Shown here piece after piece: positions 5,963 to 43,610 of a stretch of 43,630 nt of DNA. The translations under genes and the position numbers were made by a program. The DNA is from a virus (Duplodnaviria; Caudoviricetes): positions 1 to 43,630 of the IMG/VR virus record IMGVR_UViG_3300030061_001151. The stretch is one strand, 5' to 3'. The notes under the pieces were generated by a model that searched no databases, was not told the DNA's origin, and was given only the letters and a program-made list of their open reading frames with translations. How positions within the stretch are numbered: the first letter of the stretch is position 1; every line of letters begins with the position of its first letter.

Positions 5963-5974
5963 GGTGATTAAGTA

Positions 5975-19021: not shown

Positions 19022-22000
19022 ATGGCAGGTAAAATCACATATCCAGTTAACGCAGGAATATTAGATTCTGCGGTAGTCAGTGATTATGATGATAGACTTA
19101 CTGAGTTTAATAATAATAGAGCCTTTAGTAATGTATCTGTTAATCCTGTATTAAAAACAGTAGATATCAATGAGGAAAATTCTGCTTCTGCTGCCGCCTT
19201 TGTTAATTCTGCTATCTTTACAGAAATAAGAAAGAGTTCTCATACAGGAAGTATTTCTAATGATGCAGTTTCTAGAATAGGTAATAGAATACTACCTGTT
19301 GATAGTAGTCCTAGTAGTAGTGACTTAGCAGTATATGCTACTAATAAAGAAGAGACTCATGGATTTAAAGTTAAATTGTATGATAGTTCTATTAGTTCAT
19401 CTACAACAAATAGACAATTTAAATTTTCTACAACTGATTATCCTAGTTCTGATTTTGTTGGAATAGATATAGATAATTATGATTACTTTATTTTAATTAA
19501 TCCTGATATTGTAAGTGTAGGAACAGATAGTGTTAGACCGCACTTTGCAAAGATTACAGGTATTGTAGGTTTTGATGTATTTGGAGATGGATTAGAGTTT
19601 AGCCCTAGTTATCCTACAGGTGTTCCTAATGATGCTAAAGTTGAGATATTCAAAGGGCCAGCAAAAACAGATACAGATGTTGTAGCAGTAAGTTATGGAT
19701 TAAGAGGTGATGCTAATGCTAGTACACCTAAATATGATGTATTCAATATAGCAAGTAGACCTACTTTCTATTTTTACAATGATAGATTAGATGAAGATGA
19801 CCAATTAGATTATACAACAAAATATACTGTAACTGTATTACGTTGGTGGAATTATGGAACAACTATTACAGGAACGACAGTGTATGCTCATTCTCAATTT
19901 GACGAAGGTTTAGAAAATCAATCACAAAAATCTATGATAGTTTCCTCTAGTGATTATGATAAATTAACAGAAGGTATGTCTTTATTCGATACTAATGGAG
20001 TTTATTTAGGTAACATAGAAGGTTTGTTTATTAGTGACCCAACGGGTTCTGCTACCTATCGTTTGTATTTGGATTATGCTAGAGTTGCTATATCTGCTGC
20101 TTCTAATGTTACATTAAAAATAGGTAAAACAATTCAAAATATTGTATTTAGAACAGAGTCTAAGTTTGGAGATACTATTCAGAATATAGGTAAACATAGG
20201 TTAGATGCAGTGCTTGTAGATGCAAATAGAGATTTAGATGATGCAGGTAAACAATATAATTTTGCAGTGGAAGATACAGGTGTTTTAGTAAATGGTGCGT
20301 TAAATGCAGATGCAGGAGTAAATATTACTGTAGATACTGTAGATGCAACTACTAAATTTGCAATAGGTGATACAGTATATGATGATGCTGATGCAGTTGT
20401 AGGAGTTATTAGTGCTATTACTTCTACACAAATAACATTACTAGCAAACAATGTAGTGGCATTAGCAAACAATGAAAATCTCAAAAGACATGTTCCTGAT
20501 TTTAATCCTATTAGATGGCATAAAGCATTTCCTAGAATGCATAGACAGGCTGCTAATCTTCTAGTTGTAAGTAGTGCCGTAGATGGTGGAATGACAGGTG
20601 CAAGTAAATATTTAACATTTGAAAAATCTGAATTAAAAAATGATAAGATACCATTAGTACAGGGTTCTAATTTAAACAATCCTAAGAATAAGATGACAAA
20701 GATAGCACAAGTAACTTATTTAGATAATAGCGGTATTGGACATAAGAAAATCAAAGAAGATGAAATACTCAAAATGCGTAAGACTACTTTTATTGATAAC
20801 TTGGAGTTCAAACCAATACAAGGAAGAACTACTATAGTTAGCAACGTATTTAGAATAATGGATTTAGATAGTAATTATGATTTGAAAAGTATTCTCGCAG
20901 CAAATTCTATTGTTAAGATTAAAGGATATTATTACGTTGTTGATGCTGTCGCTACGAAAGTCAGAGACTCAGCAGGAGATTATCAACAATTTACTATAAA
21001 GGCTAAAAGAGAAGAAACCGCTAATACATGGACAGTTAGTTCTACACCTGAAGCAGCAGCAGGTAATAATCACCCAATTTTAGTTGCAGGGTATACACAT
21101 GTTCTAAATGTAAAATTTGAGGCTGATACAGAATATGACATTAATCAAACTAGATTAACACTGAATGGTAGAACTATAGATAAAGAAGATGCTAAATTAT
21201 ATAATGCAAGATGTACATTTAAAACATTCAATGCTCATGAAAACAAAATTGATTATATCGACAAGGTGCATAAAGTAATAAAGTTACAAAATGAAGATAC
21301 TAAGTTTTACCAAAGTACAGGTAGAAGATTAAATTATTATAATGGAGGATATGCCATACATGAAGAAGTATTTAGTGGTGTAATAGAAGATATACAAACT
21401 ATGACTGAGAATGGTGTAAATGCTATTACAGTTACAGGTAGAGATGATGTATCTAAGTTCTTATCTAAAACGATTAACAGAAATTTAGTTTCTAGTGATG
21501 ACTTAGTAATGAGTACTATGTCACCTTATACAGGAACAGTTGAGGCGTTTAAGAACGGAAGCGGTACAAGTCTAACTGGTAATAGTAGTAATATGTTGGT
21601 AGGTAAAGTTGTAAAATTAAATGCTACAGGTGGAGTTGTTAATAAATATGAAATTATAGTAAATCAAGCCGGAGAACTATTAGGAGAAGTTGTTAGTATT
21701 GATGGAACAGATATTACTTTGGCTCATACTATTTGTGAAACACCCACTACATCAACTACTGCAATAAAACATTATGACCCCTTTGTAGATAATACTCGTT
21801 TAATATCATTCAAATCATTACAGTCTAATTCTGCTCATACTGATACAATTAATGATTTTGCCTCTTTTAGTGAGAAAGGATTAATATTCGATAAGGCAAT
21901 TAAATTAGATGGGAGAGTTCCTAGTCACACTATTGTGGATGTACAAGGTTCTTCTAATACAGGAGACAACTTCGATGACAAGACATTAGGCTATGATGTT

Positions 22001-25000
22001 AGTTCGATAAGAAGTGCTTCAACTAATGATGCTGCTCATGCCTTTTTTATTGGAAACGAAGATGGTATAGTTAATGAAATAACAAACTATAATTCTTTAA
22101 ATTCAGAATCTTTTGCCGTAGTGGAAGTAGATGAAAAGAGTGAATCTGAAACAGTAATATCTATTGCTCCTAAAATGCCTATTGTATTAGGAAGAATAGA
22201 TACAAATACATCTGACACTAGAGGTAATACTCATATCTATATGGTAAATAATAATATTAATACGGGAGGATATATACATCGCTTACCTGATACCTTTGAC
22301 GGAATATATCATCCAAAAGAAACAATTAGATATTGGGATTTACAGACTTTTGAAGCAGGTACTTTAACAAGGACATCTGATACCATTTATAGTGAAGGAA
22401 TCAAACCACAAAAAATACAAGGTTATGCAGTAGGATATGGTACAACAGTTACAGGTACGGTTACTGACCCTGCTATAACAGCAGATAACAAACCTATACT
22501 CGGTAGTAATACTATTAAGAATTATACACAAAGAACAGCCTTCTATGGAAATCATGACCTAATAGAATCATATCAATATAACCAGTCACATGGTAGTAGT
22601 GGTAATACAGTAAAAGAGTATGATATTATGTATGATGTGTTTGAACAAATAGACCCTAGAACTATTCCATATGAACTAATGGCCGTAGGTGATATATACC
22701 CATTGTCTAAATTAAGATGGAATAATTTAGGGTTTCACACACTTAGTTATGACCAATTTGCTATTTTATTAGAATCTACTCCATCTGTTACAAGTTCAAC
22801 AAATCATCAATTATATGATGGTACAACTAAACAAACTGTAAAAACAGAAAATATGTTTGAAACAGGACAAATACAAAGTGCAACACAGACTACAAATCAA
22901 CTTAGAAGATGGGGTGTTATTAAATTAGTAGAAGCAACTTTTGATTGGCACTTTAATCCTATAGATTTTGAGTCTTTGAAACCCTCTGAACAAATACCAA
23001 CAATTCCTTATTTTGATTATGTAATGTTTGATACTCCAACCGCAGATACAGGTACAATACAAATAGGGGAAAACGGTGAAATTGATAGTGAATCTTTGAC
23101 TGAAAGTGAAGGGGATGTGTTTTATGATGAACAGGTTATAGGGGCTTATCCATCTACAGGAGACAATGTGGCTAGTGGATATGCCGTTGTTTCTAACGCT
23201 AGTGGAATAGTCGTTCCTACTGAATCAAATGGATTAATTGTAAAGCATGATGGTAGTGTGTTTAGACCTAATGCTGCATTTGATGATGATGGGTTTACAA
23301 CTCTATATGGAAATACATCGGGTAAAGATATGTTACGATTTGATGGTAATTCTGCGGTAGAAGGAGTAGAAAGATTCAGAATACATAGAACAATTGATTA
23401 TATGATTGATAATTTAGATACTACTACTGATGCTAATTTTTTGACAGACCGAAGAGATGCATTAAAAAATATAAGATGGACAGATGTTTTCTTTACTAGA
23501 AGAGGTAGTAAAGCAAATGCTAATTTTAAATTTGGTAGATTATCTGATGGTGGTGATGAATATGAAGCACCAAATGTTATATTACCAATAATTGCAGAAG
23601 AGAAAGTAAACACTGGAAATAATGAAGACCGAATATTTAGTCCATTTATTCATGGAACTAATTGGGGTTCAGGAACAAGACATTTCCTTCATATGTCAAG
23701 AGTAATTGCAGCATTAGTTGAAAGGTACAAAAGTAGTAATACATATTTTAGTATATTAGATAAGTATGGTATGGGGTTAACTGATACTAATTCTGCTACC
23801 TTTGCTCATCCATATCAAAATTGTATTGGTGTATTCAAGGATATTAGACAGGCTGAGTCTGATAGTACAGTGCGACTAGATACATTATCTATTTCTTCTG
23901 CTCCGCTAGACTTAGATACTGATTCTAATTATGCGGATTATATAGATGGGGTAGGTAATACATTAGACCAACATACACGTACTTCTTTTATACAATCTTA
24001 TCCCAGTAGTACAACCCTTTCTATGATTGGCACAAGAACTGATGGAGATTTTCTTGGAGACAAGAAGGCTATTGCCAGTGGACTTAATGCAACTCATGCA
24101 GCATGTAATTCAGGAGATGGAATTGTTTGTTCTGCTCAAATGTTAGTTAAACCTGTTTTTAATTTAACACATGGTAGTGGTGGGGTTACTGTATCTAATG
24201 CTCAACTAACCTTTGTACTGAATGCAGATACAGGACATGCTTGGTTAAGTTTTATGCCTAACTTAACAGGTTATTATATTGTATCTGAGTCTCTTACTGA
24301 TGTTTCATTATCTGCTAGTGCAGTAGCAGGAAGTCTAAGAAAAGACCCTGATAGTGCTTATCCTGCTGACATTCACAAAATAATAAGCCACACTGTTTCT
24401 ACACTACCTACTACATCCAATATTGAAACTCATACTATTACGGTAGATGCTAATTTAACAATAGACAGCAATAATAAAAAATATAGATTAATGAGAATTT
24501 CAGAAACCACCTTTGATGGTCACGAAGATAAAATAGAGTTCAATGTAATGAAGCCACAAGAAGTAGCATTTAATTGGAAAAGAGGAGGACAAGATGATGA
24601 TAATCTACAATACCAAGAATCTGTATATGAAATGCATTTACTGTTAGACATAGACAATGCCTCAACATTTATTGAAAGAAGAACTAATACTGCTATAGAT
24701 GACCATTTTACTGATGGTGAAACGATAGAAACATATATCACTGATGGAAATAATTCACAAAGAAAAACATTAACAATCGCTACTACTAGAAAGAAAGGTA
24801 GTTCTGATTCTAAAACAACCGCAGGATTAGTAATGTCATTTAGTGGTTCTCTTACAGGTAATGGTGTTGTATCTTTTGGAGAGATATTTGATGTAAAACT
24901 AGGACAAAGACCCAAAATAAAAAATATAAAACATTGTCATATAGGTAGTTCGTATAGGATTGGAAGTAATGTAGAAAAAGAAGTAGAAAATATTGTGAAA

Positions 25001-26101
25001 GATGCAGGATTAATATATGATAATTCTAAGAGTTTTTCAGAATTTACAGGGAATGTTGTTAACAGTGTAAATAGTTTAACTATTACATGTCTTGAAACTG
25101 TTACAAATATAACTGCCGGAGATATATTATATTCAAAGGATGGACATTTAATAGGTAAGGTAGCCTCTACGAGTGGTGCTACTGTTGTTATTGACACACA
25201 GTTATATTATACACCAACACAATATGATGAATTAATTAGAATAAATAAAAGAACATTTATTTCATCTTTAAACTTAGAAGATATAGATGTATTTACTGCT
25301 CTTAATACATTGGTAAACAAGAAAGGACTAGATTATACATTAAAAGATAAGAAAATTATAACAAGAAATCTAGATGATATTAGTAGTTTAAGAAAGTATT
25401 CAGTTGGGTATCTAGAGGCTAATAGATTAATTAGTGTAGAAAGTAATACTTCTCTGTTTGATAAAGCAAACAAGGTTATAGTTGTTGGTGATAAAATAAG
25501 AACAGAAATAACTAGCCCTGTAAAAGGAACTGATAAGGTAATTAGAATAGTAGATTCTTCTATTAAAGATATAACTGAAGCAAATCAAATTGCACAAGAA
25601 ACATTGAATGTACATAATGGTGAAAGTAGAAAGATTACTTTAACATTAGATAAAAAAGGATTAGAGTTATTAGAAGCAGGTGATATACTAACTTTGAATT
25701 TCCCACAACATAATATTCCTAAAGCAGATTATCAAGTGTTTGAAATTGAAAATGTATTAGCAGGTGTAATGAAAATAACAGTTGGAACGTTTGATAAAAC
25801 AATTGCAGAAAGACTTAGTGAGATATCATTAGAACAAAAGAAATCAAATATCAGTTTAATGAAAAAAGATGCACTAATTGTTAGTGCAGGTTTAGCATTA
25901 TTTGATTCTATTAATATCAATTTCATTGACGTAAGTTATGAAATTACTAGTACAGTTGTAGAAAATCCAAACTTAGGATTTGATGATGTAGTTGGGTTTA
26001 CTGAGACCGTAAACTTTGATACACAGACTACCCTCAAGTCGAGTTATGATGATGGTGTGATTGAGAGAGCAGAAAAATATACGGACATGATGGAGGATTA
26101 A
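19022..26101 (+). CDS. Very large tail tip/baseplate hub protein
   Basis: 2359 aa. Tal-like segments (VFSGVIEDI..ITVTGRD; NKVIVVGD; LLEAGDILTL) separated by large beta-rich insertions. Confidence 0.7.
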   Translation: MAGKITYPVNAGILDSAVVSDYDDRLTEFNNNRAFSNVSVNPVLKTVDINEENSASAAAFVNSAIFTEIRKSSHTGSISNDAVSRIGNRILPVDSSPSSSDLAVYATNKEETHGFKVKLYDSSISSSTTNRQFKFSTTDYPSSDFVGIDIDNYDYFILINPDIVSVGTDSVRPHFAKITGIVGFDVFGDGLEFSPSYPTGVPNDAKVEIFKGPAKTDTDVVAVSYGLRGDANASTPKYDVFNIASRPTFYFYNDRLDEDDQLDYTTKYTVTVLRWWNYGTTITGTTVYAHSQFDEGLENQSQKSMIVSSSDYDKLTEGMSLFDTNGVYLGNIEGLFISDPTGSATYRLYLDYARVAISAASNVTLKIGKTIQNIVFRTESKFGDTIQNIGKHRLDAVLVDANRDLDDAGKQYNFAVEDTGVLVNGALNADAGVNITVDTVDATTKFAIGDTVYDDADAVVGVISAITSTQITLLANNVVALANNENLKRHVPDFNPIRWHKAFPRMHRQAANLLVVSSAVDGGMTGASKYLTFEKSELKNDKIPLVQGSNLNNPKNKMTKIAQVTYLDNSGIGHKKIKEDEILKMRKTTFIDNLEFKPIQGRTTIVSNVFRIMDLDSNYDLKSILAANSIVKIKGYYYVVDAVATKVRDSAGDYQQFTIKAKREETANTWTVSSTPEAAAGNNHPILVAGYTHVLNVKFEADTEYDINQTRLTLNGRTIDKEDAKLYNARCTFKTFNAHENKIDYIDKVHKVIKLQNEDTKFYQSTGRRLNYYNGGYAIHEEVFSGVIEDIQTMTENGVNAITVTGRDDVSKFLSKTINRNLVSSDDLVMSTMSPYTGTVEAFKNGSGTSLTGNSSNMLVGKVVKLNATGGVVNKYEIIVNQAGELLGEVVSIDGTDITLAHTICETPTTSTTAIKHYDPFVDNTRLISFKSLQSNSAHTDTINDFASFSEKGLIFDKAIKLDGRVPSHTIVDVQGSSNTGDNFDDKTLGYDVSSIRSASTNDAAHAFFIGNEDGIVNEITNYNSLNSESFAVVEVDEKSESETVISIAPKMPIVLGRIDTNTSDTRGNTHIYMVNNNINTGGYIHRLPDTFDGIYHPKETIRYWDLQTFEAGTLTRTSDTIYSEGIKPQKIQGYAVGYGTTVTGTVTDPAITADNKPILGSNTIKNYTQRTAFYGNHDLIESYQYNQSHGSSGNTVKEYDIMYDVFEQIDPRTIPYELMAVGDIYPLSKLRWNNLGFHTLSYDQFAILLESTPSVTSSTNHQLYDGTTKQTVKTENMFETGQIQSATQTTNQLRRWGVIKLVEATFDWHFNPIDFESLKPSEQIPTIPYFDYVMFDTPTADTGTIQIGENGEIDSESLTESEGDVFYDEQVIGAYPSTGDNVASGYAVVSNASGIVVPTESNGLIVKHDGSVFRPNAAFDDDGFTTLYGNTSGKDMLRFDGNSAVEGVERFRIHRTIDYMIDNLDTTTDANFLTDRRDALKNIRWTDVFFTRRGSKANANFKFGRLSDGGDEYEAPNVILPIIAEEKVNTGNNEDRIFSPFIHGTNWGSGTRHFLHMSRVIAALVERYKSSNTYFSILDKYGMGLTDTNSATFAHPYQNCIGVFKDIRQAESDSTVRLDTLSISSAPLDLDTDSNYADYIDGVGNTLDQHTRTSFIQSYPSSTTLSMIGTRTDGDFLGDKKAIASGLNATHAACNSGDGIVCSAQMLVKPVFNLTHGSGGVTVSNAQLTFVLNADTGHAWLSFMPNLTGYYIVSESLTDVSLSASAVAGSLRKDPDSAYPADIHKIISHTVSTLPTTSNIETHTITVDANLTIDSNNKKYRLMRISETTFDGHEDKIEFNVMKPQEVAFNWKRGGQDDDNLQYQESVYEMHLLLDIDNASTFIERRTNTAIDDHFTDGETIETYITDGNNSQRKTLTIATTRKKGSSDSKTTAGLVMSFSGSLTGNGVVSFGEIFDVKLGQRPKIKNIKHCHIGSSYRIGSNVEKEVENIVKDAGLIYDNSKSFSEFTGNVVNSVNSLTITCLETVTNITAGDILYSKDGHLIGKVASTSGATVVIDTQLYYTPTQYDELIRINKRTFISSLNLEDIDVFTALNTLVNKKGLDYTLKDKKIITRNLDDISSLRKYSVGYLEANRLISVESNTSLFDKANKVIVVGDKIRTEITSPVKGTDKVIRIVDSSIKDITEANQIAQETLNVHNGESRKITLTLDKKGLELLEAGDILTLNFPQHNIPKADYQVFEIENVLAGVMKITVGTFDKTIAERLSEISLEQKKSNISLMKKDALIVSAGLALFDSININFIDVSYEITSTVVENPNLGFDDVVGFTETVNFDTQTTLKSSYDDGVIERAEKYTDMMED

Positions 26102-26464: not shown

Positions 26465-29400
26465 ATGGTACAAAATAACCCTGATTTTCTAAGTACTATG
26501 AGTACAAATCCTAATGTTAGATTAGCCGATGGAGCAGATAATATTCACAGTTTAATATTTGCTCAAATGAATATTGCTACTTCTGATAATAGAGTTATAG
26601 ATGGATTTAATATTACTCAAAATACAAGTGGTACATATACTACTTATGCAGTTAGTTTGGGTTCAATATTTAGAGATGGTTTATTAGTTTCTATCGCTGC
26701 TACAACTTCTAATTTAACTGTTGAAATTGCTCAAAAAACTTTTGATTGGTATGGTGTATTAGTAATTAATAGTTCAAATGCATTTGCTATTAGAACAGGA
26801 GCATCTAGTGGTTCTTCTGCAAAAGTTTCTACATTATCTGCCGGAGATATACCGATAGCAGTTATTAAATTCGCTGCAAATCAATTAGGAGTAGAGAATC
26901 AAATACAATATTTGGCTTATGGACAAACTGTTAGAGAACTTTCTATTGTAAATGAAGCAGGTGGTGTTCCCTCAGAAACACTAAGAATAAATAAAACAGG
27001 TACAATATCTAAAATTTCATCAGGAAGTGTTGCAGGAACACTAACATTACCTGATGCTACAGGAACTATTGCTCTAACAAGTCAAGCATATACTCATCCT
27101 AACCATAGTGGTGATGTAACTTCTAATGCAGATGGTGCTACAACTATTGCTAATGATGCCGTTACTTATGCTAAAATGCAGAATGTATCTGCTACTAATA
27201 GAATATTAGGAAGAGATTCTTCGGGAGCAGGAGATGTAGAAGAAATTACACCTGCTAATTTGCGTACCATGATTAATGTTGAAGATGGAGCAACTGCTGA
27301 CCAAACAGATGCACAAATAGAAACTGCATATAATAATCAAGTTGCAGCAGTTAGTTCACAAGAAAGAACAGATGGAACTGTAACTGCCATTAGAAGATTT
27401 ACTCCTGCTGATATTCATAGTATGATTGATACACATGCTTCAGATACTAATACAGATGTAGATGTTTCAATTGCTAATCTAAAAACTAAATTAAACAGTG
27501 ATTTTGGTGGAGACTTTACAATAGGTAGTCAGAATGATGATACTGCAACGATTAGTGGTCATCTAACTGTTGGTGGTAATTTAACAATTCAAGGTAGTAC
27601 AACTACTATTAATACTGAAACAGTTTCTCTACAAGATAATATTATTTTATTGAATAGTAATTCTGCTAATACTCCTAGTGAAAATGCAGGATTAGAAGTA
27701 GAACGTGGTAATTCTAACAATGTAAAATTAAGATGGAACGAATCTACAGATAGGTGGCAATTTACAAATGATGGTTCTACTTACTTTAATTTACCAACTA
27801 CCGCAGAATTAGCAAACCCATATACTCACCCTGATAGTGATGTTGCTAATTTAGATACAAGCGGAGCAGAAGTATTAGATACATTAGTGACTAATGCTAC
27901 TGGTCATATTACTGCTATGACAAAGAGAACATTAACTAAGGGAGATTTAGGATTAGGTAATGTCGAAAATACTGCTATCTCTAGTTTTACAGGTACAAGT
28001 AATATTGCAACTGTAGGAACTATAGGAACAGGAACATGGCAAGGCACTGCAATTGCAACCGCTTACATAGCAGATGATGCAATTACTCAGGCTAAATTAG
28101 CAGATGATGCAGTAGGTGCTGACCAATTAGCATCTAATGCAGTAGTTAATGCCAGTATTGCTTCTAATGCTGCCATTGCACAAAGTAAAATAGATGGCCT
28201 ATCTACTTCTTTATCCGGTAAAGAACCTAGTCTTACAATTGGTCTTGGGTTAAATAGAAACAGTGCAACTCTATCTCTAGATATAAATTCTTTAACAAAT
28301 GAAAATGCTATTCATAGAACTAATGATACTTTAGCCTTTTATGATGCTGATGGTAATACAACTAAATTAAGAAAGGTAACACTAGAAAATATACTAAATA
28401 AACTAACTTCTGCTGATATTCCTGCTGATGCTATTACAGGAGCAAAAATCGCTGACGATGCAGTTGCAGCAGAACATATAGCAAGTAATGCTATTGTAAA
28501 TGCTTCTGTAGCAAGTGATGCAGCAATCACTGCTGATAAATTAGCAGATGAAAGTGGTACTAATTCTTCTACAAAAAAGATATTTACATATGGTGAACAA
28601 CAAAAACTTGCAGGTATTGCTGCAAATGCAAACAATTTCTCTTTAACAAGTAGTTCAGTTACCAATGCTCATCTAGCAGGAAGTATTGCAAATTCTAAAT
28701 TATCTAACTCTTCTGTTACAGTTAACAGTAATGCAGTAGCATTAGGAGGAAGTATTACATTAGATACAGATGATATTGGTGAAGGTAATAATAAATACTA
28801 TACTGATGAAAGAGTAGATGACAGAGTTAATGCTTTAATTACGGCAGGAGAAGGAATAGATACTTCATATGATGATAGTTCTAATGCTTTGACCATATCA
28901 ACTGAAGATGCCACAAGTTCCAATAAGGGAGTTGCTTCTTTTGCTAGTACTGATTTTGATGTTAGTAGTGGTGCAGTTTCTATTAAAGCAGCAGGTGTAA
29001 GTAATTCACAATTGGCAGGTAGTATAGCACAAAGTAAAGTAACTAATTTGGTGTCTAATTTAGCAGCCAAAGCACCAATAGCAGACCCTACCTTCACTGG
29101 TGAAATAGGAATAGGTGACGTAAATGTAAGTGAAACAGAATTAGGTATCCTAGAAGGGGCTACTCTTACAACAACAGAATTAAATTATGTAGATGGGGTT
29201 ACATCTTCTATACAAACTCAATTAAATTCTAAGTTATCTTCATTATCTGTATCAGGATTAAGTGATGTTTCTTCCGGTCTAATTCAGAGTATAACTAATG
29301 GTTCAACATCAGATACAATACCGAGTGCAGCCGCCGTGTATAGCCTAGTACAAGGTGCTTCAAATATAACTAGGTTATATGAGGTTGATTTTGCTGATGT

Positions 29401-32400
29401 ATCGGGAGATGCTAATAGTAAGAAATTAATTCTATCTTCAAATCAAGGCGATACCAATGATGTTGTTTTTCAAGCAGGAGATGGGATTAGATTAGTAAAG
29501 AGTGAAAATAATCAAGGTTTACAGATTGAGTCTCTTAATTATAATGATATAATATCAAGTGCAGCCTTTAGTGAAGGTGTACTTACCTTAACTCAAAATG
29601 ATAGTAGTACATTAACTGCAACACTTCCTGATGCTACAACTTCTGCTCATGGTTTAATGACTGATACTCAGTTTGACCAATTAGCAGCAAACGTATCTAA
29701 ATTATCAGGAATAGAAAGTAATGCTACTGCTGACCAAACTGCTGCTGAAATTAGAACATTAGTTGAGTCTGCTTCTGATTCTAATGTATTTACTGATGCT
29801 GACCATTCTAAACTTAATGCAATAGAAGCGAGTGCAGATGTTACAGATAAAGCAAATGTTTCTTCAGTATTAGCATCTTTAAATCAAGATGATACTTTAC
29901 ATATAGGAGATACAGGTAATGATACAACTGTTAGAGTTAGAGGTAATCTATTTGTTGATGGTACAACTACAACAGTAAATCAAACTGCAATTAATGTGCA
30001 AAATGCATTTGTCTTTGAAGGTGCAACAGGAAATGATTTTGAAACAACTCTCACTATTACTGACCCTACCGCAGACAGAACTATTACATTACCGGATATA
30101 ACAGGAACTCTAATTACAACAGGAGATACAGGTACAATATCAAGTGGTATGATTGCCTCTGCTGCGGTTACTAGTGCTAAATTAGGAACAAGTTCTGTTT
30201 TAACTTCTAAGATAAATTCTAGTGCCGTAACAACTGCAAAGATTGCTTCTGATGCAGTAACAGGTGCTAAGATTGCAGATGATGCAATTGATTCAGAACA
30301 TTACACTGATGGTAGTATAGATACTGCACATCTTTCTGATAATGCAATCACTACTGCTAAAATAACTGATGCTAATGTTACTACTGCTAAAGTAGCAGAT
30401 GATGCAATAACATACGCAAAGATTCAAAATGTTTCTGCAACAAATAGAATACTAGGAAGAGATAGTAGTGGTGCGGGAGTAATAGAAGAAATAACTCCTG
30501 CAAATTTAAGAACAATGCTTAATGTTGCAGATGGTGCAACTAGTGTTTCAACAGAAGATATTCAAGATATAGTAGGTGCTATGTTTAGTGGTAATACTGA
30601 AACTAACGTAACTGCTACATATGAAGATTCTGATGGAACAATTGATTTAGTTGTTGCCGGTACAATCACAGGTAATGCTGGAACTGCAACTGCGTTAGAA
30701 ACTGCAAGAACTATTGGTGGAGTTTCTTTTGATGGAACTGCTAATATTAATTTAGCAGGAGTAAATATTGCAGGTAATCAGGATACTAGTGGTAATGCGG
30801 CTACTGCAACATTAGCAACTAATGCTACACATGTAACTGTTACAGATAATGAAAATACAGATGAAAATAATTTAATTACTTTTATTGAAGATGCATCTGC
30901 TACAGGAAATGTAGGTTTAGAATCTGATGGTGATTTCCACTATAATCCAAGTACAGGAACAGTTACCGCTACAATATTTTCAGGTGCTCTATCAGGAAAT
31001 GCAACTACTGCTACAGGTCTTTCTGCAACTTTAGCAATTTCTAGTGGTGGAACAGGGGCTACAAATAGTAATGCTTGGTTAAATAGTAGGATTACTACAA
31101 ATGCTGATGGTTCACTTAACTATGATGCTACAGGTGCTACGGCAGTAAATCACGATAGTTTAGCAGGATTCGTAGCAGCAGAACACTATAGATGGGATAC
31201 TGATATAAGTAGCACTGCTACAATTAATGCTGCTAATATCCCTACATTAAATCAGAATACAACAGGAAGTGCTGCTACACTAACAACTGCTAGAACAATT
31301 AATGGAGTTAACTTTGATGGTTCTGCTAATATAACTGTAACTGCTGCTGCTACAACTTTAACAGGAACTAGTTTGAAAAGCACAGTAGTTGGTTCTTCGT
31401 TAACATCTGTTGGTTCTTTAACTTCTTTAGATGTAAATGGTGATACTACAATATCAGGTACTCTTTCATTAGATGGTTCTGCTAACGAATTAAGATTTTA
31501 TGAAGGTTCTAATTATGTAGGGTTTGAAGCCCCTGCTTTATCTGCTAATCAAATATGGGTATTACCTGCTGCTGATGGTAGTGCTAATCAAGTATTGAAA
31601 ACAGATGGTAGTGGCAATTTAGCATGGGGAACTGCTGATGGAACTGCTTCTTCTACAGTAGTAGTATCTGATAGTACTGCAAATACAAACTTCCCAGTAG
31701 TATTCCATGATGAGTCTAATGCTCTATTGGATGATACAGGAGCATTAAGATATAATCCAAGTACAGGAACTTTACTTGTTCCTAATCTTGTTGTTGCAGG
31801 AACTACAACTACTGTTGATACTGTTACAATGGAAGCGGCTAATGCAGTAGTGTTTGAAGGAGCAACTGCTGATGCTTATGAAACTACATTAACTATTACA
31901 GACCCAACTGCTGATAGAACAATTACTTTACCTAATGCAGGAGGAACAGTAGCAGTATCAGCATCCGCAGGAATAGCATTATCTGCGGCAGGAGATATTA
32001 CTGCTAATCTATCTGCATCCCATATTCCTAATTTAGCAACAAGTAAAATTACTTCCGGTACATTTGCAGATGCAAGAATAGCCGCCTCTAATGTTACTCA
32101 ACATCAAGCCTCTATTACTGCTCTTGGAACTTTAACCGCACTTACAGGTGGAACGGGTGATTTAATTTGGGATACAAATACTTTAGTTGTTGATTCATCA
32201 GCAGACCGAGTTGGAATAGGTATTACTGCTCCCGAATATAAGTTAGATGTTCAAGATGGTTCAATTAGAATATTACCTACTATTTCATCCAATGCAGGAA
32301 CGGCAATTAGAGTTGGAGCAAGAGATAATGATAATGATATTACTTTAATTAGAGTAGATGGAAATGGTTCGGGAGAAGGAACAGGTAATACCGGAGAATC

Positions 32401-35332
32401 TAATGATAGTAATTATGGTTTCTCTATGAAATACATGGGTAGTGGTAGTGGTGATAGAAATAGATTTGGATTGATTATGGATAATCAAGCCGGTGTTCCA
32501 TATGAAGCACTTACTGTTTTACAAAATGGTGAAGTTGGAATAGGTAGTACTGACCCTCAATCTCAATTAGAAATTCGTGCTGGTGCTGGTGCTGCTGGTA
32601 CTCTTACATTATCAACTGGTGAAACAACAGTAGTTGATGGTGACAAACTCGGTAGGATTAACTTTAATGCACCATTAGAAGGAAGTGGAACAGATGCCAT
32701 TCTAGTTGGTGCTTCCATATGGGCAGAAGCAGATGCTGAATTTGCGTCAGACAATAATAAAACATCATTGGTTTTTGCTACAGGTGCTTCAGAAGCGGCT
32801 GCTGAAAAAATGAGACTTACATCAACAGGACAAATACTTCTAACAGGTGGTACATCAGCAGCAGTAGCAGCAGGTAGTGTAGGTATAGTAGAAGATGGAG
32901 ATACAGTAGAGATAAGAAATCAACATGGTGTCATCAACATAGGTTCAACAAATACATCTTATGCACACATTACAACCGATAGGTCAAGATTTTACTTTGA
33001 TGAAAGTTTGGTAGTTAATGATGGTATGGTATCATCATATGACGAAGATTTAGAACTAAAAAGAGCACAATCAGATGATGAGAAAATTGTTGTAGGAGAT
33101 GACTCGATGACATTTACTTCTGCCGGAAATGATGTAATGCAAATTGATGGTACTAATACAAGAGTAGGAATAGGAACAGGTGCAACAGTAGATGCTACAT
33201 TACATGTAGAAGGTAGTGTGTTAATTGATGCTTATGGAGCAGGAGCAGGGGCAGGTTTGTTTTTCCGTGATGGTTACTTAAATACTAATCAACCTTCAAT
33301 TACAGTACAAGACCATAATGGTTCTAATCCTGATGGACTTGCTATATCTGCTTACGATGGTATATCATTCCTATTAGATGCAACAGAAAAAGCAAGATTT
33401 GATAGTGCGGGTAAACTTGGTTTAGGTACTACTGCACCATCTAATAAATTACATCTTGCTTTATCTATGGCTGATGGTGATGATGGAATACTTCTAACAA
33501 GAACTGATAGTAGTACAAGTCAAAATGATATTCTTGGTGGAATTGGTTTTGATTCTTCTGATGGTAATATTCCTAGTACAATAACAGAAGCATCAGTAGC
33601 GTTAGTTGCTAAAGCAAGGGAAGACCACGGAACAGGAGATAAAGGAGGCTATCTTGACTTCTATTATACACCATCTGATGACGATGATGATACAACTTCC
33701 CGTATAGGTATGCGAATGATGCAAGGGAAATTATCAGTTGGTGGTCAAAATAGTGATGTAGGCGACCCAATTAATTCATTAGTAGTTGAACATGCAGGTA
33801 GTGATTGGCATAATGGAATACTCGTTCTTCGTGATGATACATCAATATCAGAAGGCGATTTACTAGGTGCAATTGGTTTTGATGGTAAAGATGGAAATAA
33901 CCCAAGCAGTGTCCTAGAAGCATCAGTGGCTCTTGCTGGTTACGCTTCTGAAGACCACGGAACAGGAGATAAAGGTGGGTATCTTTCTGTATTACTTACT
34001 GAAACTAATGACGATGATGATACAACAAGTACAGAAGTTATGAGAGTATCTACTGTTTCTGCGGGAACATCTTCAACTTTAACAATAAAGAATGGTAACG
34101 TTTCAATGCCTGATGATACTAAATATGCGGCAATTGATTTCCATAATGTAGATAGTAGTGGAGCAGGAGTTGGTGCTTCAATAAACGCTATGTCTGCTGC
34201 TAGTGGAAGAGGTGGATATTTAGAGTTCCAAACAGGTACAACCGGAGGAAGTCAAGCCACTAGAGTAACAATAGATTCAGCAGGTAGTGTAGGAATAGGC
34301 ACTACAACTCCTTCTGAAAAATTAGAGGTTGCAGGTAATATATTAGTTAACAATAATGGCTCAATAAAGGCAAACGGAAGTGGGTCTTTACTGCTTGGAA
34401 ATACAAATAGTGGTCTTATCAAAGTTCATGGTGATACAAGTTCATCTATTATAGAAGGTCATGGTAACGCCTTAGTTTTACAAACAGTACGTGATAGTGA
34501 CGATATTAAATTTAATGTAAACAAAGGTGGTACTGATTCAGATGGAACTGAAGTAACAGTAATGAAAATAGATGGTGAATTAGGACATGTAGATATACCT
34601 ACTGATAATACAAGATTAAGATTTGGTGCAGGTCAAGACTTATCTATTTATCACGATGGTTCTAACTCTTATATAGATGAAGAAGGAACTGGTTCTTTAA
34701 TTATTAACTCAACTCAAGTTGCTCTGAAAGGAGGAAGTGATGCCGCAGAAAATATGGCTACATTTATGGATAATGGAGCAGTAACTCTCTATCATAATAA
34801 CTCGGCTAAGTTTGCTACAACTGCTACGGGTGCAGAAGTTACAGGTGAAATTAAAACTTCGTTAGGTAACATTAACAGTTGTGTAACATTTGTGTATAAC
34901 AGAAGTGATATGAATAGTGGTGCAGTAAATCTAAAAGCAGTATCAAATGATTACGGTTCAACTCAAAATCATTGGGGATTTATTATGCCTAAATCGGGAA
35001 CAGTAAAATATTTAACATTAAACACTAGAAATCATACAGTTACAAGTACAAACGTACAAACTTGGAAAATAAATAATAATAATGATAATGGAACTTCGGG
35101 GGAATTTTTTGCAATTGATGTAGCAAAAGGTGCAACTCAAGATAATACAGGAGTGAGTGGAGATGCTACAATGGAATTAACACAATCTTCTCATTCAAGT
35201 ACAATATGGAGAGGTTCAGTGGTTGTAAACCACACCTTTGATGCAGGAGATGAAATTAGAATACAAAGAACAAATGCCAACAGTGTTGATATGGGAGATA
35301 CTACGGGTGTTTTATACGTGGAGTTTGATTGA
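26465..35332 (+). CDS. Giant modular tail fibre/adhesin
   Basis: 2955 aa, A/T/S/G/D-rich. Repeated AVTxAKIADD units, TARTIxGVxFDG, and VGIGTTxPxxKL fibre motifs. GGAGGTGA SD. Confidence 0.85.
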   Translation: MVQNNPDFLSTMSTNPNVRLADGADNIHSLIFAQMNIATSDNRVIDGFNITQNTSGTYTTYAVSLGSIFRDGLLVSIAATTSNLTVEIAQKTFDWYGVLVINSSNAFAIRTGASSGSSAKVSTLSAGDIPIAVIKFAANQLGVENQIQYLAYGQTVRELSIVNEAGGVPSETLRINKTGTISKISSGSVAGTLTLPDATGTIALTSQAYTHPNHSGDVTSNADGATTIANDAVTYAKMQNVSATNRILGRDSSGAGDVEEITPANLRTMINVEDGATADQTDAQIETAYNNQVAAVSSQERTDGTVTAIRRFTPADIHSMIDTHASDTNTDVDVSIANLKTKLNSDFGGDFTIGSQNDDTATISGHLTVGGNLTIQGSTTTINTETVSLQDNIILLNSNSANTPSENAGLEVERGNSNNVKLRWNESTDRWQFTNDGSTYFNLPTTAELANPYTHPDSDVANLDTSGAEVLDTLVTNATGHITAMTKRTLTKGDLGLGNVENTAISSFTGTSNIATVGTIGTGTWQGTAIATAYIADDAITQAKLADDAVGADQLASNAVVNASIASNAAIAQSKIDGLSTSLSGKEPSLTIGLGLNRNSATLSLDINSLTNENAIHRTNDTLAFYDADGNTTKLRKVTLENILNKLTSADIPADAITGAKIADDAVAAEHIASNAIVNASVASDAAITADKLADESGTNSSTKKIFTYGEQQKLAGIAANANNFSLTSSSVTNAHLAGSIANSKLSNSSVTVNSNAVALGGSITLDTDDIGEGNNKYYTDERVDDRVNALITAGEGIDTSYDDSSNALTISTEDATSSNKGVASFASTDFDVSSGAVSIKAAGVSNSQLAGSIAQSKVTNLVSNLAAKAPIADPTFTGEIGIGDVNVSETELGILEGATLTTTELNYVDGVTSSIQTQLNSKLSSLSVSGLSDVSSGLIQSITNGSTSDTIPSAAAVYSLVQGASNITRLYEVDFADVSGDANSKKLILSSNQGDTNDVVFQAGDGIRLVKSENNQGLQIESLNYNDIISSAAFSEGVLTLTQNDSSTLTATLPDATTSAHGLMTDTQFDQLAANVSKLSGIESNATADQTAAEIRTLVESASDSNVFTDADHSKLNAIEASADVTDKANVSSVLASLNQDDTLHIGDTGNDTTVRVRGNLFVDGTTTTVNQTAINVQNAFVFEGATGNDFETTLTITDPTADRTITLPDITGTLITTGDTGTISSGMIASAAVTSAKLGTSSVLTSKINSSAVTTAKIASDAVTGAKIADDAIDSEHYTDGSIDTAHLSDNAITTAKITDANVTTAKVADDAITYAKIQNVSATNRILGRDSSGAGVIEEITPANLRTMLNVADGATSVSTEDIQDIVGAMFSGNTETNVTATYEDSDGTIDLVVAGTITGNAGTATALETARTIGGVSFDGTANINLAGVNIAGNQDTSGNAATATLATNATHVTVTDNENTDENNLITFIEDASATGNVGLESDGDFHYNPSTGTVTATIFSGALSGNATTATGLSATLAISSGGTGATNSNAWLNSRITTNADGSLNYDATGATAVNHDSLAGFVAAEHYRWDTDISSTATINAANIPTLNQNTTGSAATLTTARTINGVNFDGSANITVTAAATTLTGTSLKSTVVGSSLTSVGSLTSLDVNGDTTISGTLSLDGSANELRFYEGSNYVGFEAPALSANQIWVLPAADGSANQVLKTDGSGNLAWGTADGTASSTVVVSDSTANTNFPVVFHDESNALLDDTGALRYNPSTGTLLVPNLVVAGTTTTVDTVTMEAANAVVFEGATADAYETTLTITDPTADRTITLPNAGGTVAVSASAGIALSAAGDITANLSASHIPNLATSKITSGTFADARIAASNVTQHQASITALGTLTALTGGTGDLIWDTNTLVVDSSADRVGIGITAPEYKLDVQDGSIRILPTISSNAGTAIRVGARDNDNDITLIRVDGNGSGEGTGNTGESNDSNYGFSMKYMGSGSGDRNRFGLIMDNQAGVPYEALTVLQNGEVGIGSTDPQSQLEIRAGAGAAGTLTLSTGETTVVDGDKLGRINFNAPLEGSGTDAILVGASIWAEADAEFASDNNKTSLVFATGASEAAAEKMRLTSTGQILLTGGTSAAVAAGSVGIVEDGDTVEIRNQHGVINIGSTNTSYAHITTDRSRFYFDESLVVNDGMVSSYDEDLELKRAQSDDEKIVVGDDSMTFTSAGNDVMQIDGTNTRVGIGTGATVDATLHVEGSVLIDAYGAGAGAGLFFRDGYLNTNQPSITVQDHNGSNPDGLAISAYDGISFLLDATEKARFDSAGKLGLGTTAPSNKLHLALSMADGDDGILLTRTDSSTSQNDILGGIGFDSSDGNIPSTITEASVALVAKAREDHGTGDKGGYLDFYYTPSDDDDDTTSRIGMRMMQGKLSVGGQNSDVGDPINSLVVEHAGSDWHNGILVLRDDTSISEGDLLGAIGFDGKDGNNPSSVLEASVALAGYASEDHGTGDKGGYLSVLLTETNDDDDTTSTEVMRVSTVSAGTSSTLTIKNGNVSMPDDTKYAAIDFHNVDSSGAGVGASINAMSAASGRGGYLEFQTGTTGGSQATRVTIDSAGSVGIGTTTPSEKLEVAGNILVNNNGSIKANGSGSLLLGNTNSGLIKVHGDTSSSIIEGHGNALVLQTVRDSDDIKFNVNKGGTDSDGTEVTVMKIDGELGHVDIPTDNTRLRFGAGQDLSIYHDGSNSYIDEEGTGSLIINSTQVALKGGSDAAENMATFMDNGAVTLYHNNSAKFATTATGAEVTGEIKTSLGNINSCVTFVYNRSDMNSGAVNLKAVSNDYGSTQNHWGFIMPKSGTVKYLTLNTRNHTVTSTNVQTWKINNNNDNGTSGEFFAIDVAKGATQDNTGVSGDATMELTQSSHSSTIWRGSVVVNHTFDAGDEIRIQRTNANSVDMGDTTGVLYVEFD
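33620..33975 (+). repeat. Exact 26-nt direct repeat marking a 330-nt tandem domain duplication in the fibre
   Basis: GAAGACCACGGAACAGGAGATAAAGG at 33620-33645 and 33950-33975. Confidence 0.9.
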
Positions 35333-41032: not shown

Positions 41033-41913
41033 AACCAACTCTCCGTATTAGCCGCATCGCATATTCCAAAAAAACTACAAGAAGCACAAGTTCTTGCAAA
41101 ATATTTAGTGGGGAATACTCCGTGTTCATATGCGTATATCAATTCTGCGATTCCTTTCTTTACTGATGTAACACTACTAGGTTTCATCTTTTCCATATGT
41201 AAATAATTAGATGCAGGGTAATACCATCCCCAATGAGTAATTGGTATATTTCTGTCTAAGTTTGCACTTTCTAATAATTCATCAGAGGCGTTCTCGAATA
41301 GTAATTTGTAAAAGGCCATTTCCTTTCTCATCATTGTTGTTTTGTAATCTTTCCAAAGACCTGTTTTTAATTCCATAGGGATATATGAACCGTCTTCATA
41401 AAACATACGGTCAATAATACCTTGAAGATGTACAGTGTAATCTCTTTTCAGTGTATACTTTGGGTTATCGTATTGACCTACAGTAATCTTAGCATCTAGT
41501 AATACTTCATTAACAACAGGAATAAAATCATCTAACGTATTTTGTTCTTTGGCTTCTATAAATCTATTAGCCTCAAAGATAGCCATAGTTTCATACATCT
41601 CCGTATAGTCATCTATAGGGTGTAGGCTAAGACAATAATTAATTAATTCTGAATGTGACATATCTTCTGCTTTAGCAATGTCAAAATCATCAAAGAATGC
41701 TTCTCTAGCATTGTGAATAATAGTACCCTTATACATTGCTTCAGTTGTATCTTGAGGTAATCTTTCGATATATGAAAATTGATATTTTTTAGGACACCAT
41801 TGGAAAGAACCAAATGATGATTTAGTTATTTTTAATATTGGTAAATCTTCATCACCATATGTATCTGCTACCCATTGATATGTATATTCATTTGTATTAC
41901 TACTTCTTGTCAT
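41029..41913 (-). CDS. Cas4-like PD-(D/E)xK nuclease with an Fe-S cluster motif
   Basis: WCPKKY, GTIIH, GIIDR, ELKTG and CASCSFFGIC. Start placed at ATG 41913 (TAATG overlap with the PolB fragment, GAGGAG SD). Confidence 0.85.
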   Translation of the reverse strand: MTRSSNTNEYTYQWVADTYGDEDLPILKITKSSFGSFQWCPKKYQFSYIERLPQDTTEAMYKGTIIHNAREAFFDDFDIAKAEDMSHSELINYCLSLHPIDDYTEMYETMAIFEANRFIEAKEQNTLDDFIPVVNEVLLDAKITVGQYDNPKYTLKRDYTVHLQGIIDRMFYEDGSYIPMELKTGLWKDYKTTMMRKEMAFYKLLFENASDELLESANLDRNIPITHWGWYYPASNYLHMEKMKPSSVTSVKKGIAELIYAYEHGVFPTKYFARTCASCSFFGICDAANTESWL

Positions 41914-42815
41914 TAAAACCACTCCTCTAAATCTTTTTGATTGTTGTCTTTTGTTATATTCGCAGTTGACCAACCCATTGCTAAATAAACTGGTTCTGCT
42001 TTCTTCACTACAGTATTGGCATAATAAAACCAATCAATAGAACTACGTGAAGATTTTAAAAATAGTTCTATTTCTTTTTCGTTATTTGCAGAATACCATG
42101 TTGTTATGATAGTCTGTTGAGTAACAGGATGTAAAAACTTATTATTACTGTTTTCTTTTATTTTACAATATAAATATGAATCAGTAATAGGAGAGTTATT
42201 TGGAAGATTATTATAAAATAACACACCTGCAATCCCTGCTCCTACTGTAACATTTTTACCTTCTGTTGTTTGTAATTTAGGTAAACTACAACAAGGATTC
42301 ATTACTAATTCATTTAGATTAGAATTTCTTTTACATGTTTTACATTCTACTTGAAATCTAACATCTCGATATCTACTTCTTTTCGTAATTTCTGACAAAG
42401 GTACATTTCCATTTAATACTTCATAATACTTATCATTAAGATAAGAACTAATCTCTTCTTCAGTTTTACTTTCTGCCCACATTCTTAGTACAGTAAGTTG
42501 CACTTCTTTAGATAACTTCGTTTCAGAAACTCTTTTTGCAGTAAATCCTGTCATAGTAAATTCCATTTCTTCTAAGTCTTCACCATCTTTCCATGTTATT
42601 AGTCCTGCATTCCTATTCTTAGTTACACCTACACCAAGACTATGAAAATACTTTTCAAATTCTAGAACAACAGGGTGTTCTTCTAAATTTAGAATATTGG
42701 GAAAACTTTTCCTAACGTGCTTGTTTAGAACGTCTAATGTTTTTTTAGATTCTTCTATACTATCTATTTGTACATAAATAGAATCGGTATGTCCATAAAC
42801 TACTTTCAAGGCCAC
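41913..42815 (-). CDS. polB: Family B DNA polymerase, C-terminal fragment of a split gene
   Basis: Starts at the motif C variant YGHTDS, followed by LEFEK, KNRNAG and thumb region. There is an in-frame stop just before the start, and no exonuclease domain or motifs A/B. Confidence 0.88.
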   Translation of the reverse strand: MALKVVYGHTDSIYVQIDSIEESKKTLDVLNKHVRKSFPNILNLEEHPVVLEFEKYFHSLGVGVTKNRNAGLITWKDGEDLEEMEFTMTGFTAKRVSETKLSKEVQLTVLRMWAESKTEEEISSYLNDKYYEVLNGNVPLSEITKRSRYRDVRFQVECKTCKRNSNLNELVMNPCCSLPKLQTTEGKNVTVGAGIAGVLFYNNLPNNSPITDSYLYCKIKENSNNKFLHPVTQQTIITTWYSANNEKEIELFLKSSRSSIDWFYYANTVVKKAEPVYLAMGWSTANITKDNNQKDLEEWF

Positions 42816-42946
42816 TCAACTCCATCTTGAATAATCTTATATGTTGTACGCACGTTTTCTAGTAGAATATATCCTACACATATTAAAAAACCTAAACCTG
42901 CACAACACGCACCGTACAATAATAAATCTATACTTTCAATTGTCAT
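42806..42946 (-). CDS. Small single-pass membrane protein, 46 aa
   Basis: Hand-translated MTIESIDLLLYGACCAGLGFLICVGYILLEN...EWP. Overlaps both neighbours. Confidence 0.6.
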   Translation of the reverse strand: MTIESIDLLLYGACCAGLGFLICVGYILLENVRTTYKIIQDGVEWP

Positions 42947-43172
42947 TTCTTTTAATCCCCCAATTCTTGTAAGTTAAACCTTGTAAAGCAACACCTGTAA
43001 ATAATCCAATAGTAATATCTGTTACGGTAATAAACATAAATCCTAACAATATAAGTGAAGACCATATCCAATGATGTAAGTGATATTTCTCTGTTTTCAA
43101 AGAAGGTACTCTAGGCACTGCCCATTTTGCTAATGCAAACCCACCTATTACAGATAAACTATACATTAACAT
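42936..43172 (-). CDS. Small multi-pass membrane protein with an HLHHW motif
   Basis: Start placed at ATG 43172 (TAATG overlap with the Rep-like gene). Three hydrophobic segments. Confidence 0.65.
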   Translation of the reverse strand: MLMYSLSVIGGFALAKWAVPRVPSLKTEKYHLHHWIWSSLILLGFMFITVTDITIGLFTGVALQGLTYKNWGIKRNDN

Positions 43173-43516
43173 TATTCTTCCTCTCCTTCTATTTCGTTCA
43201 CCCAAACACCTAGTTCCCAAGGGCCATCAACTCTAGTTGACTCTTTCATACAGTAGTTTCTTGCCTGTTCTCTAGTTCCATAGCGGAAACTGTACCACGC
43301 CCTACCCATTGTTTCTTTCACATCCATGAATTTTACTTCTCCTTTGAACTCGACATAGCCTTGAATGTGTTCTATAGTCTCCTTTTCGAGTTGATAGACT
43401 AGGTAAGACACTCTATCATCTGTTAGGAGTTTGTGCATCCCACCTATTTTCGGATTGTTAACAGTAAATACAAAACCAGTATGTTTTTTTGACATTCTTG
43501 CAGATTTTGACAACAT
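43172..43516 (-). CDS. rep: CRESS-DNA-virus-type Rep HUH endonuclease domain, stand-alone with no helicase
   Basis: Rolling-circle motif I FVFTVNNP, motif II EHIQGYVEF, motif III ARNYCMKE, then TRVDGPWELG. Confidence 0.85.
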   Translation of the reverse strand: MLSKSARMSKKHTGFVFTVNNPKIGGMHKLLTDDRVSYLVYQLEKETIEHIQGYVEFKGEVKFMDVKETMGRAWYSFRYGTREQARNYCMKESTRVDGPWELGVWVNEIEGEEE

Positions 43517-43517
43517 G

Positions 43518-43610
43518 TTACTTACTCCACTCTATAAAATAATGATGATAACATTCACCATGCATAAACATCGCTTTGTCACAACCTTTTCTAGTACACT
43601 TTCTTATCAT
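43518..43610 (-). CDS. Micro Zn-finger protein, 30 aa (Cx4C...CxxH)
   Basis: Hand-translated MIRKCTRKGCDKAMFMHGECYHHYFIEWSK. GGAGG SD. Confidence 0.6.
   Translation of the reverse strand: MIRKCTRKGCDKAMFMHGECYHHYFIEWSK

Follow-up and report, generated by a model that had tools for sequence, protein, structure and literature searches.

A CRESS-type HUH endonuclease gene as an optional cassette between the split polB halves of a likely Poseidoniales tailed virus

How does a Rep endonuclease of the circovirus/nanovirus type come to lie in the genome of a tailed double-stranded DNA virus, and what might it do there? This question is raised by one gene in a 43,630-nucleotide stretch of viral DNA (IMG/VR record IMGVR_UViG_3300030061_001151, positions 1 to 43,630), referred to here in its whole length as the window.

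The HUH gene and its predicted fold

The HUH (Viral_Rep, PF02407) gene at 43172..43516 on the minus strand has an ATG start and a TAA stop, and encodes an endonuclease-only protein of 114 aa. RCR motif I (FTVNN, residues 17-21; 43454..43468, minus strand) was located from the sequence and by alignment to a nanovirus Rep. Motif II (HIQG, the HUQ metal site, residues 50-53; 43358..43369, minus strand) and motif III (YCMK, with the predicted catalytic Tyr88 and Lys91; 43244..43255, minus strand) were placed by the nanovirus Rep alignment and by an alignment of 121 rows. GPWELG occupies residues 98-103. A preliminary description of the window had assigned these motifs to the circovirus/nanovirus type and proposed an HMM search with PF02407. 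The search bore this out: PF02407 was matched over profile positions 3-82 of 82, with an E-value of 4.4e-17 and 62.6 bits against a cut-off of 26. No other Pfam family was matched in the Pfam profile search, and no family for the protein was found in PHROGs. The top solved structure by sequence was the nuclease domain of the faba bean necrotic yellows nanovirus M-Rep (E 1e-14). The gene had also been described as stopping right after the nuclease domain, without an SF3 helicase, and as coupled to the next gene; indeed, the protein stops after residue 114, and its stop codon overlaps the downstream ATG (TAATG). Homologues begin at the second Met of the window protein (residue 8). The GC3 of the gene was 0.36, compared to 0.16-0.22 in three neighbours.

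The AF2 model of the protein, made with the 121-row alignment, had a pLDDT of 85. It aligned with 6h8o (nanovirus M-Rep) with TM-scores of 0.76/0.90, an rmsd of 1.4 Å and 37% identity, and the Reps of PCV2 and duck circovirus ranked after it. An HUH fold is thus predicted; the model leans on CRESS Reps because such Reps sat in its input alignment. Smacoviruses are reportedly tied to archaea via CRISPR spacers, and the preliminary description had raised this link for the window gene. The match of the smacovirus Rep 8fr5 to the model was far weaker (E 0.011, 18%), so that fold similarity gives this link no support. E44, H50, Q52, Y88, K91 and P99 were invariant in all 121 rows, which included family members and CRESS-type Reps, so that the catalytic His and Tyr are kept as first described. 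The window gene is predicted to encode an active single-strand nickase.

The split polB locus and the optional cassette

The gene had been placed in a dsDNA archaeal virus. Profile matches (Pfam and PHROGs) identified prohead protease, capsid, tail, ligase, ERCC4, PD-(D/E)XK and polB genes in the window, and eight of the nine best phage records for the capsid protein were haloarchaeal tailed viruses. The archaeal-virus setting is supported by these capsid matches and by the tail, ligase, ERCC4 and polB genes. A previous report, in its available text, gave a polB split in the catalytic domain as a hallmark of group B magroviruses (Aoguangviridae) (PMC5434244). Both a polB split in the catalytic domain and a halovirus-like MCP were present here. 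The window virus is therefore likely a group B magrovirus, an assignment resting on these gene features, and its host is likely Poseidoniales. No named magrovirus was among the matches when the capsid protein was searched against the phage collection. Among the other genes, an 873-aa ATP-dependent ligase (746-3367, plus strand) precedes the prohead protease and far exceeds the length of the catalytic domain, and a 223-aa head-module protein (7761-8432, plus strand) had weak small-GTPase (Arf/Roc) matches. Two very long ORFs follow the tape-measure gene (19022-26101 and 26465-35332, plus strand; 2359 and 2955 aa); almost without family matches, they are likely tail or adhesion proteins.

A contig that runs past the window end, L001, was 99.8% identical to the window over 9877 bp. 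Its order is polB N-half, several mini-ORFs, HUH gene, two hydrophobic mini-ORFs and polB C-half. The C-terminal half of the split family B DNA polymerase, identified by Pfam and by comparison with L001, begins ...YGHTDS at 41913..42815 on the minus strand, and the 551-aa N-terminal half lies outside the window at L001 3134-4789. The motif YGHTDS is common to this split polymerase and to an unsplit polB on another contig (L006 7254-9659). In the gap, the ORF list and locus comparison gave a 46-aa hydrophobic mini-ORF (42806..42946, minus strand). Locus comparison also gave a 78-aa hydrophobic, likely membrane ORF (42936..43172, minus strand), which is TAATG-coupled to the HUH gene and present with or without it, and a 30-aa Cys/His-rich mini-ORF just upstream of the HUH gene (43518..43610, minus strand), conserved in L083-L086.

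A survey of the same locus in relatives, as had been proposed, showed that the HUH gene is optional and lies between the split polB halves. Eighty polB-C loci were kept from 202 matches, with both polB halves visible in 74. By tblastn and a six-frame profile search, the HUH gene was found in one locus (L082, the same contig as L001) and was missing from the other 79, including relatives with 94-96% identity. Four loci with an empty site, L083-L086, have polB halves 87-99% identical to those of the window lineage. What these loci lack is a 344-bp cassette (43173..43516, minus strand) between the upstream mini-ORF stop and the next ATG. Compared to L085 and L086, the insertion measured exactly 344 bp, from the ATG of the HUH gene to the base preceding the next ATG. 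Alignment to the empty loci revealed a 5-nt direct repeat, ATGTT. Its left copy (43512..43516, minus strand) is the start of the HUH gene, and its right copy (43168..43172, minus strand) is the start of the downstream gene and overlaps the TAA stop. No long repeats were found to bound the cassette.

The cassette-bearing and empty forms were found together. In run X1, the contig depth was 126.4 for the carrier unitig and 126.6 for the empty-form joint, with 273 for the common upstream unitig; X1 may be the run from which the window itself derives. In run X4, the two forms had depths of 3.8 and 6.4 and shared one upstream unitig. Locus and unitig comparison showed that the short upstream flank (43517..43531, minus strand) resembles the L085/L086 version in the window, and that it differs between carrier and empty forms in X1 and X4, where the empty form has 14 other letters. 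The differing flank is only ~14 nt long, a weak sign of co-conversion. Both runs also had unitigs in which the polB C-half follows the N-half almost at once (L001 4785-6118; 4 letters between them in X4). These joints may come from coexisting relatives whose gap is empty or whose polB is unsplit, or from other viruses.

A chimeric assembly, against which the preliminary description had advised a check, was ruled out because L001, L164 and X3 unitigs carry identical junctions. L164 was identical to the window in 830 of 830 letters across the HUH gene and spanned both junctions. In run X3, which belongs to a different study, unitigs bridged the junction on the left at 5366-5575 and the one on the right at 5675-6170 (numbered as in L001).

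The gaps between polB halves also change in other ways. We found 42 ORF clusters across 74 gaps, and an extra ORF in L085 and L086. HNH or endonuclease VII-like genes stood right after the polB N-half in 9 of 74 loci, a by-cluster count based on three representatives with matches among the 30 scanned of the 42 clusters. These endonuclease genes (L106 1176-1946, L158 4411-5139 and L129 4861-5523) start ~6 bp past the end of the N-half, which suggests that polB was split by endonuclease insertion. Three mini-ORF clusters without a family name (L116 5204-5572, L143 5694-5993, L154 5571-5735) occurred in 56-64 of the 74 gaps and are absent from the gap of the window lineage.

One proposed role was that of a rolling-circle initiator of the virus, using a viral helicase. 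The position in the replication module and the intact motifs would suit it, and stand-alone HUH Reps are described as working in some dsDNA prokaryotic viruses in the available text of PMC6668415. However, the gene is absent from 79 of 80 polB loci and, given the equal-depth empty form, from about half of the X1 population, which argues that it does not initiate replication. No canonical nonamer in a stem-loop was found within 1 kb of the HUH gene in six loci. The pattern ANTATTAC matched the window 35 times against 16.25 expected, with the nearest match ~1 kb from the HUH gene; its excess follows the reading frame and codons in the two long ORFs checked. TATTAC occurs ~20 nt downstream of the insertion site in both carrier and empty forms and is therefore no discriminating target. 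These results make an initiator role highly improbable.

The helicase-less family and its ancestry

The nearest relatives of the window HUH protein (P0002-P0004, P0008 and that of L163) had 68-78% identity. P0004 is encoded on L006, which has the replication gene order of the window and an unsplit polB ~30% identical to that of the window. The HUH gene stands there two genes after polB and shares 75% nucleotide identity with the window gene. L163, a 2.9-kb contig, matched the window only in the HUH gene, with 87% nucleotide identity over 290 bp. Because L163 and L006 are otherwise unmatched or divergent, these comparisons indicate that the HUH gene moves on its own, and it occupies a different site in each of the three. 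On L163, it follows by two ORFs a 314-aa phage endonuclease with three repeats (phrog_681, E 2e-43). L163 (1-2943) is a mini-ORF array with ORFs ending Glu-Glu-Glu at repeated GGAGGAAGA-stop-ATG junctions; its ORF 2380-2505 matches the C-terminal tail of P0003, which points to fusion or fission at these junctions.

A profile search added 16 clusters of 118-172 aa (P0130-P0145), and an exhaustive search three more (P0354-P0356). Together they form a family of helicase-less HUH proteins 110-180 aa long. Members occur in another magrovirus-like genome and on Poseidoniales-labelled contigs, where relatives had 36-49% identity to the window protein. A Walker A pattern occurred in 0 of 28 family rows and in 144 of 179 long Reps, for which the pattern was slightly looser. 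A C-terminal Cys3His finger with a weak DUF5763 match is typical of the family (19 of 22 rows); it is lacking in the window protein, L163 and P0140. Organism labels were available for five members: Ca. Poseidoniales/Poseidoniaceae for four of them and Marinimicrobia for the fifth. A 1.12-Mb contig carries one member, and the 69-104-kb contigs that carry family members could be viral themselves. P0274, on the 1.12-Mb contig, ends just past YCMK and is likely a frameshifted copy, and P0356 has a Cys-rich N-terminal extension of 145 aa.

Three contigs (L165-L167) looked cellular, with lipoprotein, TSP3, LDL-receptor and pentapeptide genes, and one neighbour on L166 has a member labelled Euryarchaeota archaeon. 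In all three, the HUH gene is next to an HNH gene with the same Cys3His finger; two also have a serine recombinase there, and L167 has a second HNH gene. The triad of HUH-finger, HNH-finger and convergent serine recombinase spans L165 4435-6455, L166 2684-4173 and L167 223-2408. It may be a small mobile element, or a nuclease island, of Poseidoniales. Neither element ends nor a circular form of the triad was found, and no long repeats bound it; four runs mapped on L165 covered it patchily and gave neither a circle nor an empty-site joint. No coupling protein was seen near the host-side HUH copies.

In wider searches, P0002 matched three of the 50,697 records of the phage collection, each a small circular virus that encodes a Rep, and none of the 72,556 plasmids. 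A scan of GTDB with two exact, narrow patterns gave three weak matches, none archaeal, and no Poseidoniales copy; it is no census because its patterns miss the Poseidoniales-labelled P0280 and P0328. ESM Atlas matches for P0131 were all below 0.9 and serve as leads only. Neither the family nor an HUH gene in magroviruses was found in the literature searched, in which supplementary annotation tables could list the domain, and the helicase-less HUH family is apparently undescribed so far.

The preliminary description had inferred capture from a co-infecting ssDNA virus or plasmid. All longer relatives listed were Reps on 1-5-kb contigs with 36-51% identity, most with PF00910, and the family nests among them, as such a capture would predict. 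Trees were made on the nuclease domain alone (~100 columns), with the root assumed among the long Reps, which were mostly unnamed and chosen by similarity. In the first tree (152 rows), the helicase-less rows formed one clade of 22 rows among the long Reps (SH-aLRT 97). The second tree, for which the 70 best-scoring of 179 long Reps were taken (98 rows), had the same shape, with a helicase-less clade of 28 rows (99/94). In the latter, six virus-clade rows (99/98) nested with 13 host-like rows in a 19-row set (99/95), and none of the 200 bootstrap trees united the host-like rows as one clade; this bootstrap had not settled (0.957). On these nuclease-domain alignments, the viral copies nest inside the helicase-less family, itself nested among CRESS-type Reps. 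About 20 helicase-less clusters, which have the finger in common, are closer to the window copy than the long Reps are; the copy lies inside them, and no capsid gene, helicase or origin stem-loop lies near the HUH gene. It is therefore very unlikely that the gene was taken directly and recently from a CRESS ssDNA virus in the same infection. What stands of the original proposal is a deep ancestry among helicase-bearing CRESS-type Reps. The implied presence of CRESS-like elements in the host lineage would likewise hold only as an ancient event, not as recent co-infection. The gene likely came from archaea rather than straight from an ssDNA virus, as judged from these relatives.

The gene might also be a near-neutral passenger, the relaxase or initiator of a small host integrative element (HUH, HNH and serine recombinase) that was swept into a viral gap tolerant of gene shuffling and now decays there, as the loss of the finger would show. 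A block 95.5% identical between L165 and L166 runs from 36 bp before the HUH gene through the HNH gene into the recombinase, with differing left flanks. A serine recombinase is present on L163 too (29% identical to that of L165), and PF02407 relaxases accompany an integrase in streptococcal IMEs (PMC5357655, available text). Pairwise dN/dS was 0.42 for window-L163 (Fisher p 0.02), 0.16 for window-L006 and 0.16 for L165-L166. The highest value lies on the finger-less branch, which may be under relaxed constraint. However, values of 0.16-0.42 indicate that the family is not decaying: the virus-side clade, at 68-78% identity, keeps all catalytic residues, and the pseudogene-like decay that had been named as a warning sign was looked for without finding a stop or frameshift in the five copies (window, L001, L164, L006, L163). 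The absence of element ends and of a circular form also counts against the passenger, which we consider unlikely.

The nuclease neighbours on the host side (the HNH-finger genes of L165-L167 and the second HNH gene of L167) speak for a further role, that of a weapon against small rolling-circle elements. In the host island and the virus alike, the protein would attack a satellite, plasmid or ssDNA virus of Poseidoniales by nicking or occupying its origin or ssDNA intermediates, or by poisoning its Rep. A comparable role has been proposed for avipoxvirus apvReps (PMC10193959), and small circular, possibly rolling-circle elements without a known Rep integrate in Poseidoniales (10.1101/2025.08.03.668216), according to the available text of both reports. 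The balanced two-form population would be compatible with an ecological arms race. On the other hand, PADLOC has no model that matches either the HUH protein or its HNH partner, and the oligomerisation region required for a dominant-negative effect is missing. Only a small chance is given to the weapon.

A candidate selfish nickase and its known counterparts

Taken together, the gene is most likely an old CRESS-derived nickase that settled in the mobile pool of Poseidoniales and was borrowed by viruses, where its action would be selfish or competitive. Of the roles named in the preliminary description, those of a nickase and of an anti-competitor factor agree best with this reading. The simplest order, as we infer it from the sequences, would be that a CRESS-type Rep first shed its helicase and oligomerisation regions and acquired a Cys3His finger. 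The resulting finger-bearing family would have settled beside HNH and serine-recombinase genes on Poseidoniales-type contigs. One branch would have entered virus-like genomes, where it would move as a one-gene cassette by recombination at short Shine-Dalgarno/stop/start junctions, and the finger would have been lost in the window/L163 branch. As to the role of the 344-bp cassette in this likely Poseidoniales tailed virus, we tentatively favour a selfish, homing-like nickase from the host mobile pool over an initiator, giving it not quite an even chance. It is favoured because the gene is optional and constrained, moves alone among unrelated genomes, and lies in a gap occupied elsewhere by HNH or endonuclease VII-like genes.

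In HUH enzymes, the HUQ motif binds a metal, and the Tyr cuts a single strand and stays on its 5′ end (PMC6668415, available text). In the homing-like case, Tyr88 would nick a specific sequence that becomes single-stranded during replication or recombination of a co-infecting cassette-free genome, and would remain attached to the nicked 5′ end. Repair with the carrier as template would then copy the cassette, or the rival genome would be set back. The cassette resembles a homing endonuclease gene as an optional nuclease gene near an essential gene, with cognate empty alleles. Its rarity (1 of 80 loci) and its near 50:50 share in X1, instead of fixation, count against homing, as do the cutting of single strands by HUH enzymes, the different sites of the gene in the window, L006 and L163, and the missing finger and weakest constraint (0.42) of the window copy. 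Moreover, non-nuclease mini-ORFs come and go at identical junctions, so nuclease activity is unnecessary to explain the insertion. We know of no HUH homing endonuclease. It is an improbable extension that this would be the first with HUH chemistry, a eukaryote-type CRESS nuclease domesticated in Poseidoniales, guided by a zinc finger and now spreading through their tailed viruses, and a fossil of circovirus/nanovirus-type ssDNA elements that formerly replicated in marine archaea.

The Rep captures known from dsDNA viruses (poxvirus apvReps, HHV-6 U94) come from eukaryotic systems, and their nuclease motifs are lost. Here, a helicase-less family, catalytically intact as far as its residues tell, has a new domain partner and occurs on contigs labelled as abundant marine archaea and in their likely viruses. 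This bears on whether CRESS-type replicons ever used archaeal hosts, for which the evidence so far has come mainly from smacovirus spacers. The family also offers a candidate nuclease chemistry for virus-virus conflict, with enzymes of 110-150 aa, and a PF02407 match in a marine contig need not signal an ssDNA virus.

The closest likeness is to the PF02407 Rep nucleases of nanoviruses/alphasatellites and circoviruses (6h8o, 5xor, 6wdz), which share the fold, motifs I-III, HUQ, the single Tyr and the GPWE strand. In contrast to nanovirus and circovirus Reps, the window gene has no oligomerisation or SF3 domain, capsid gene or origin stem-loop. It is found in a tailed dsDNA virus and its family on cell-like contigs, and most of its relatives have a Cys3His (DUF5763-like) finger. 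The fused SF3 helicase and the small circular genome with a capsid gene and nonamer stem-loop, features of CRESS-DNA viruses (Cressdnaviricota), are lacking here. Avipoxvirus apvRep-1 and HHV-6 U94 are ssDNA-virus Rep genes captured by dsDNA viruses (PMC10193959, available text). According to the same text, apvRep-1 is likewise an endonuclease-only Rep (100-111 aa) of a large dsDNA virus under purifying selection. It no longer has the HUH motif or the Tyr and is found almost throughout its genus, whereas the gene described here is intact and optional, with a likely archaeal host and a probable cellular reservoir.

Aeh1 is said to carry a free-standing homing endonuclease, mobE, in a split phage gene, nrdA. 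Split-gene homing endonucleases are similar to the cassette in that an optional nuclease gene lies between the halves of a split replication gene, and HNH or endonuclease VII-like genes occupy the gap of other magroviruses. The chemistry differs: here, HUH tyrosine chemistry would act on single strands, rather than HNH, GIY-YIG, LAGLIDADG or Vsr chemistry. The cassette is also not adjacent to the split point, and no split intein was seen at the ends of the polB halves. Free-standing endonucleases between split-gene halves or near essential genes are a known homing pattern (available text of PMC2677866 and PMC10448857).

Relaxases of the PF02407 type are known from two streptococcal IMEs (PMC5357655). 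These Rel_PF02407 relaxases and the pCRESS plasmid Reps share with the host-side copies a PF02407 gene in a prokaryotic chromosome beside a recombinase (PMC5357655, PMC6668415). The streptococcal IMEs encode a coupling protein along with a tyrosine integrase (PMC5357655), whereas the triad found here has a serine recombinase and HNH; all these comparisons are drawn from the available text of the two reports. Group B magroviruses share with the window virus the polB split in the catalytic domain, the halovirus-like capsid protein and a ligase in the structural block (PMC5434244, PMC11706807). The difference is the HUH gene, of which the available text of both reports has no mention (the main text of PMC11706807 does not contain the term 'HUH'). 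Endonuclease-only Reps in avipoxviruses and PF02407 relaxases in IMEs were already known; apparently new here are the helicase-less family and the HUH gene in a likely magrovirus.
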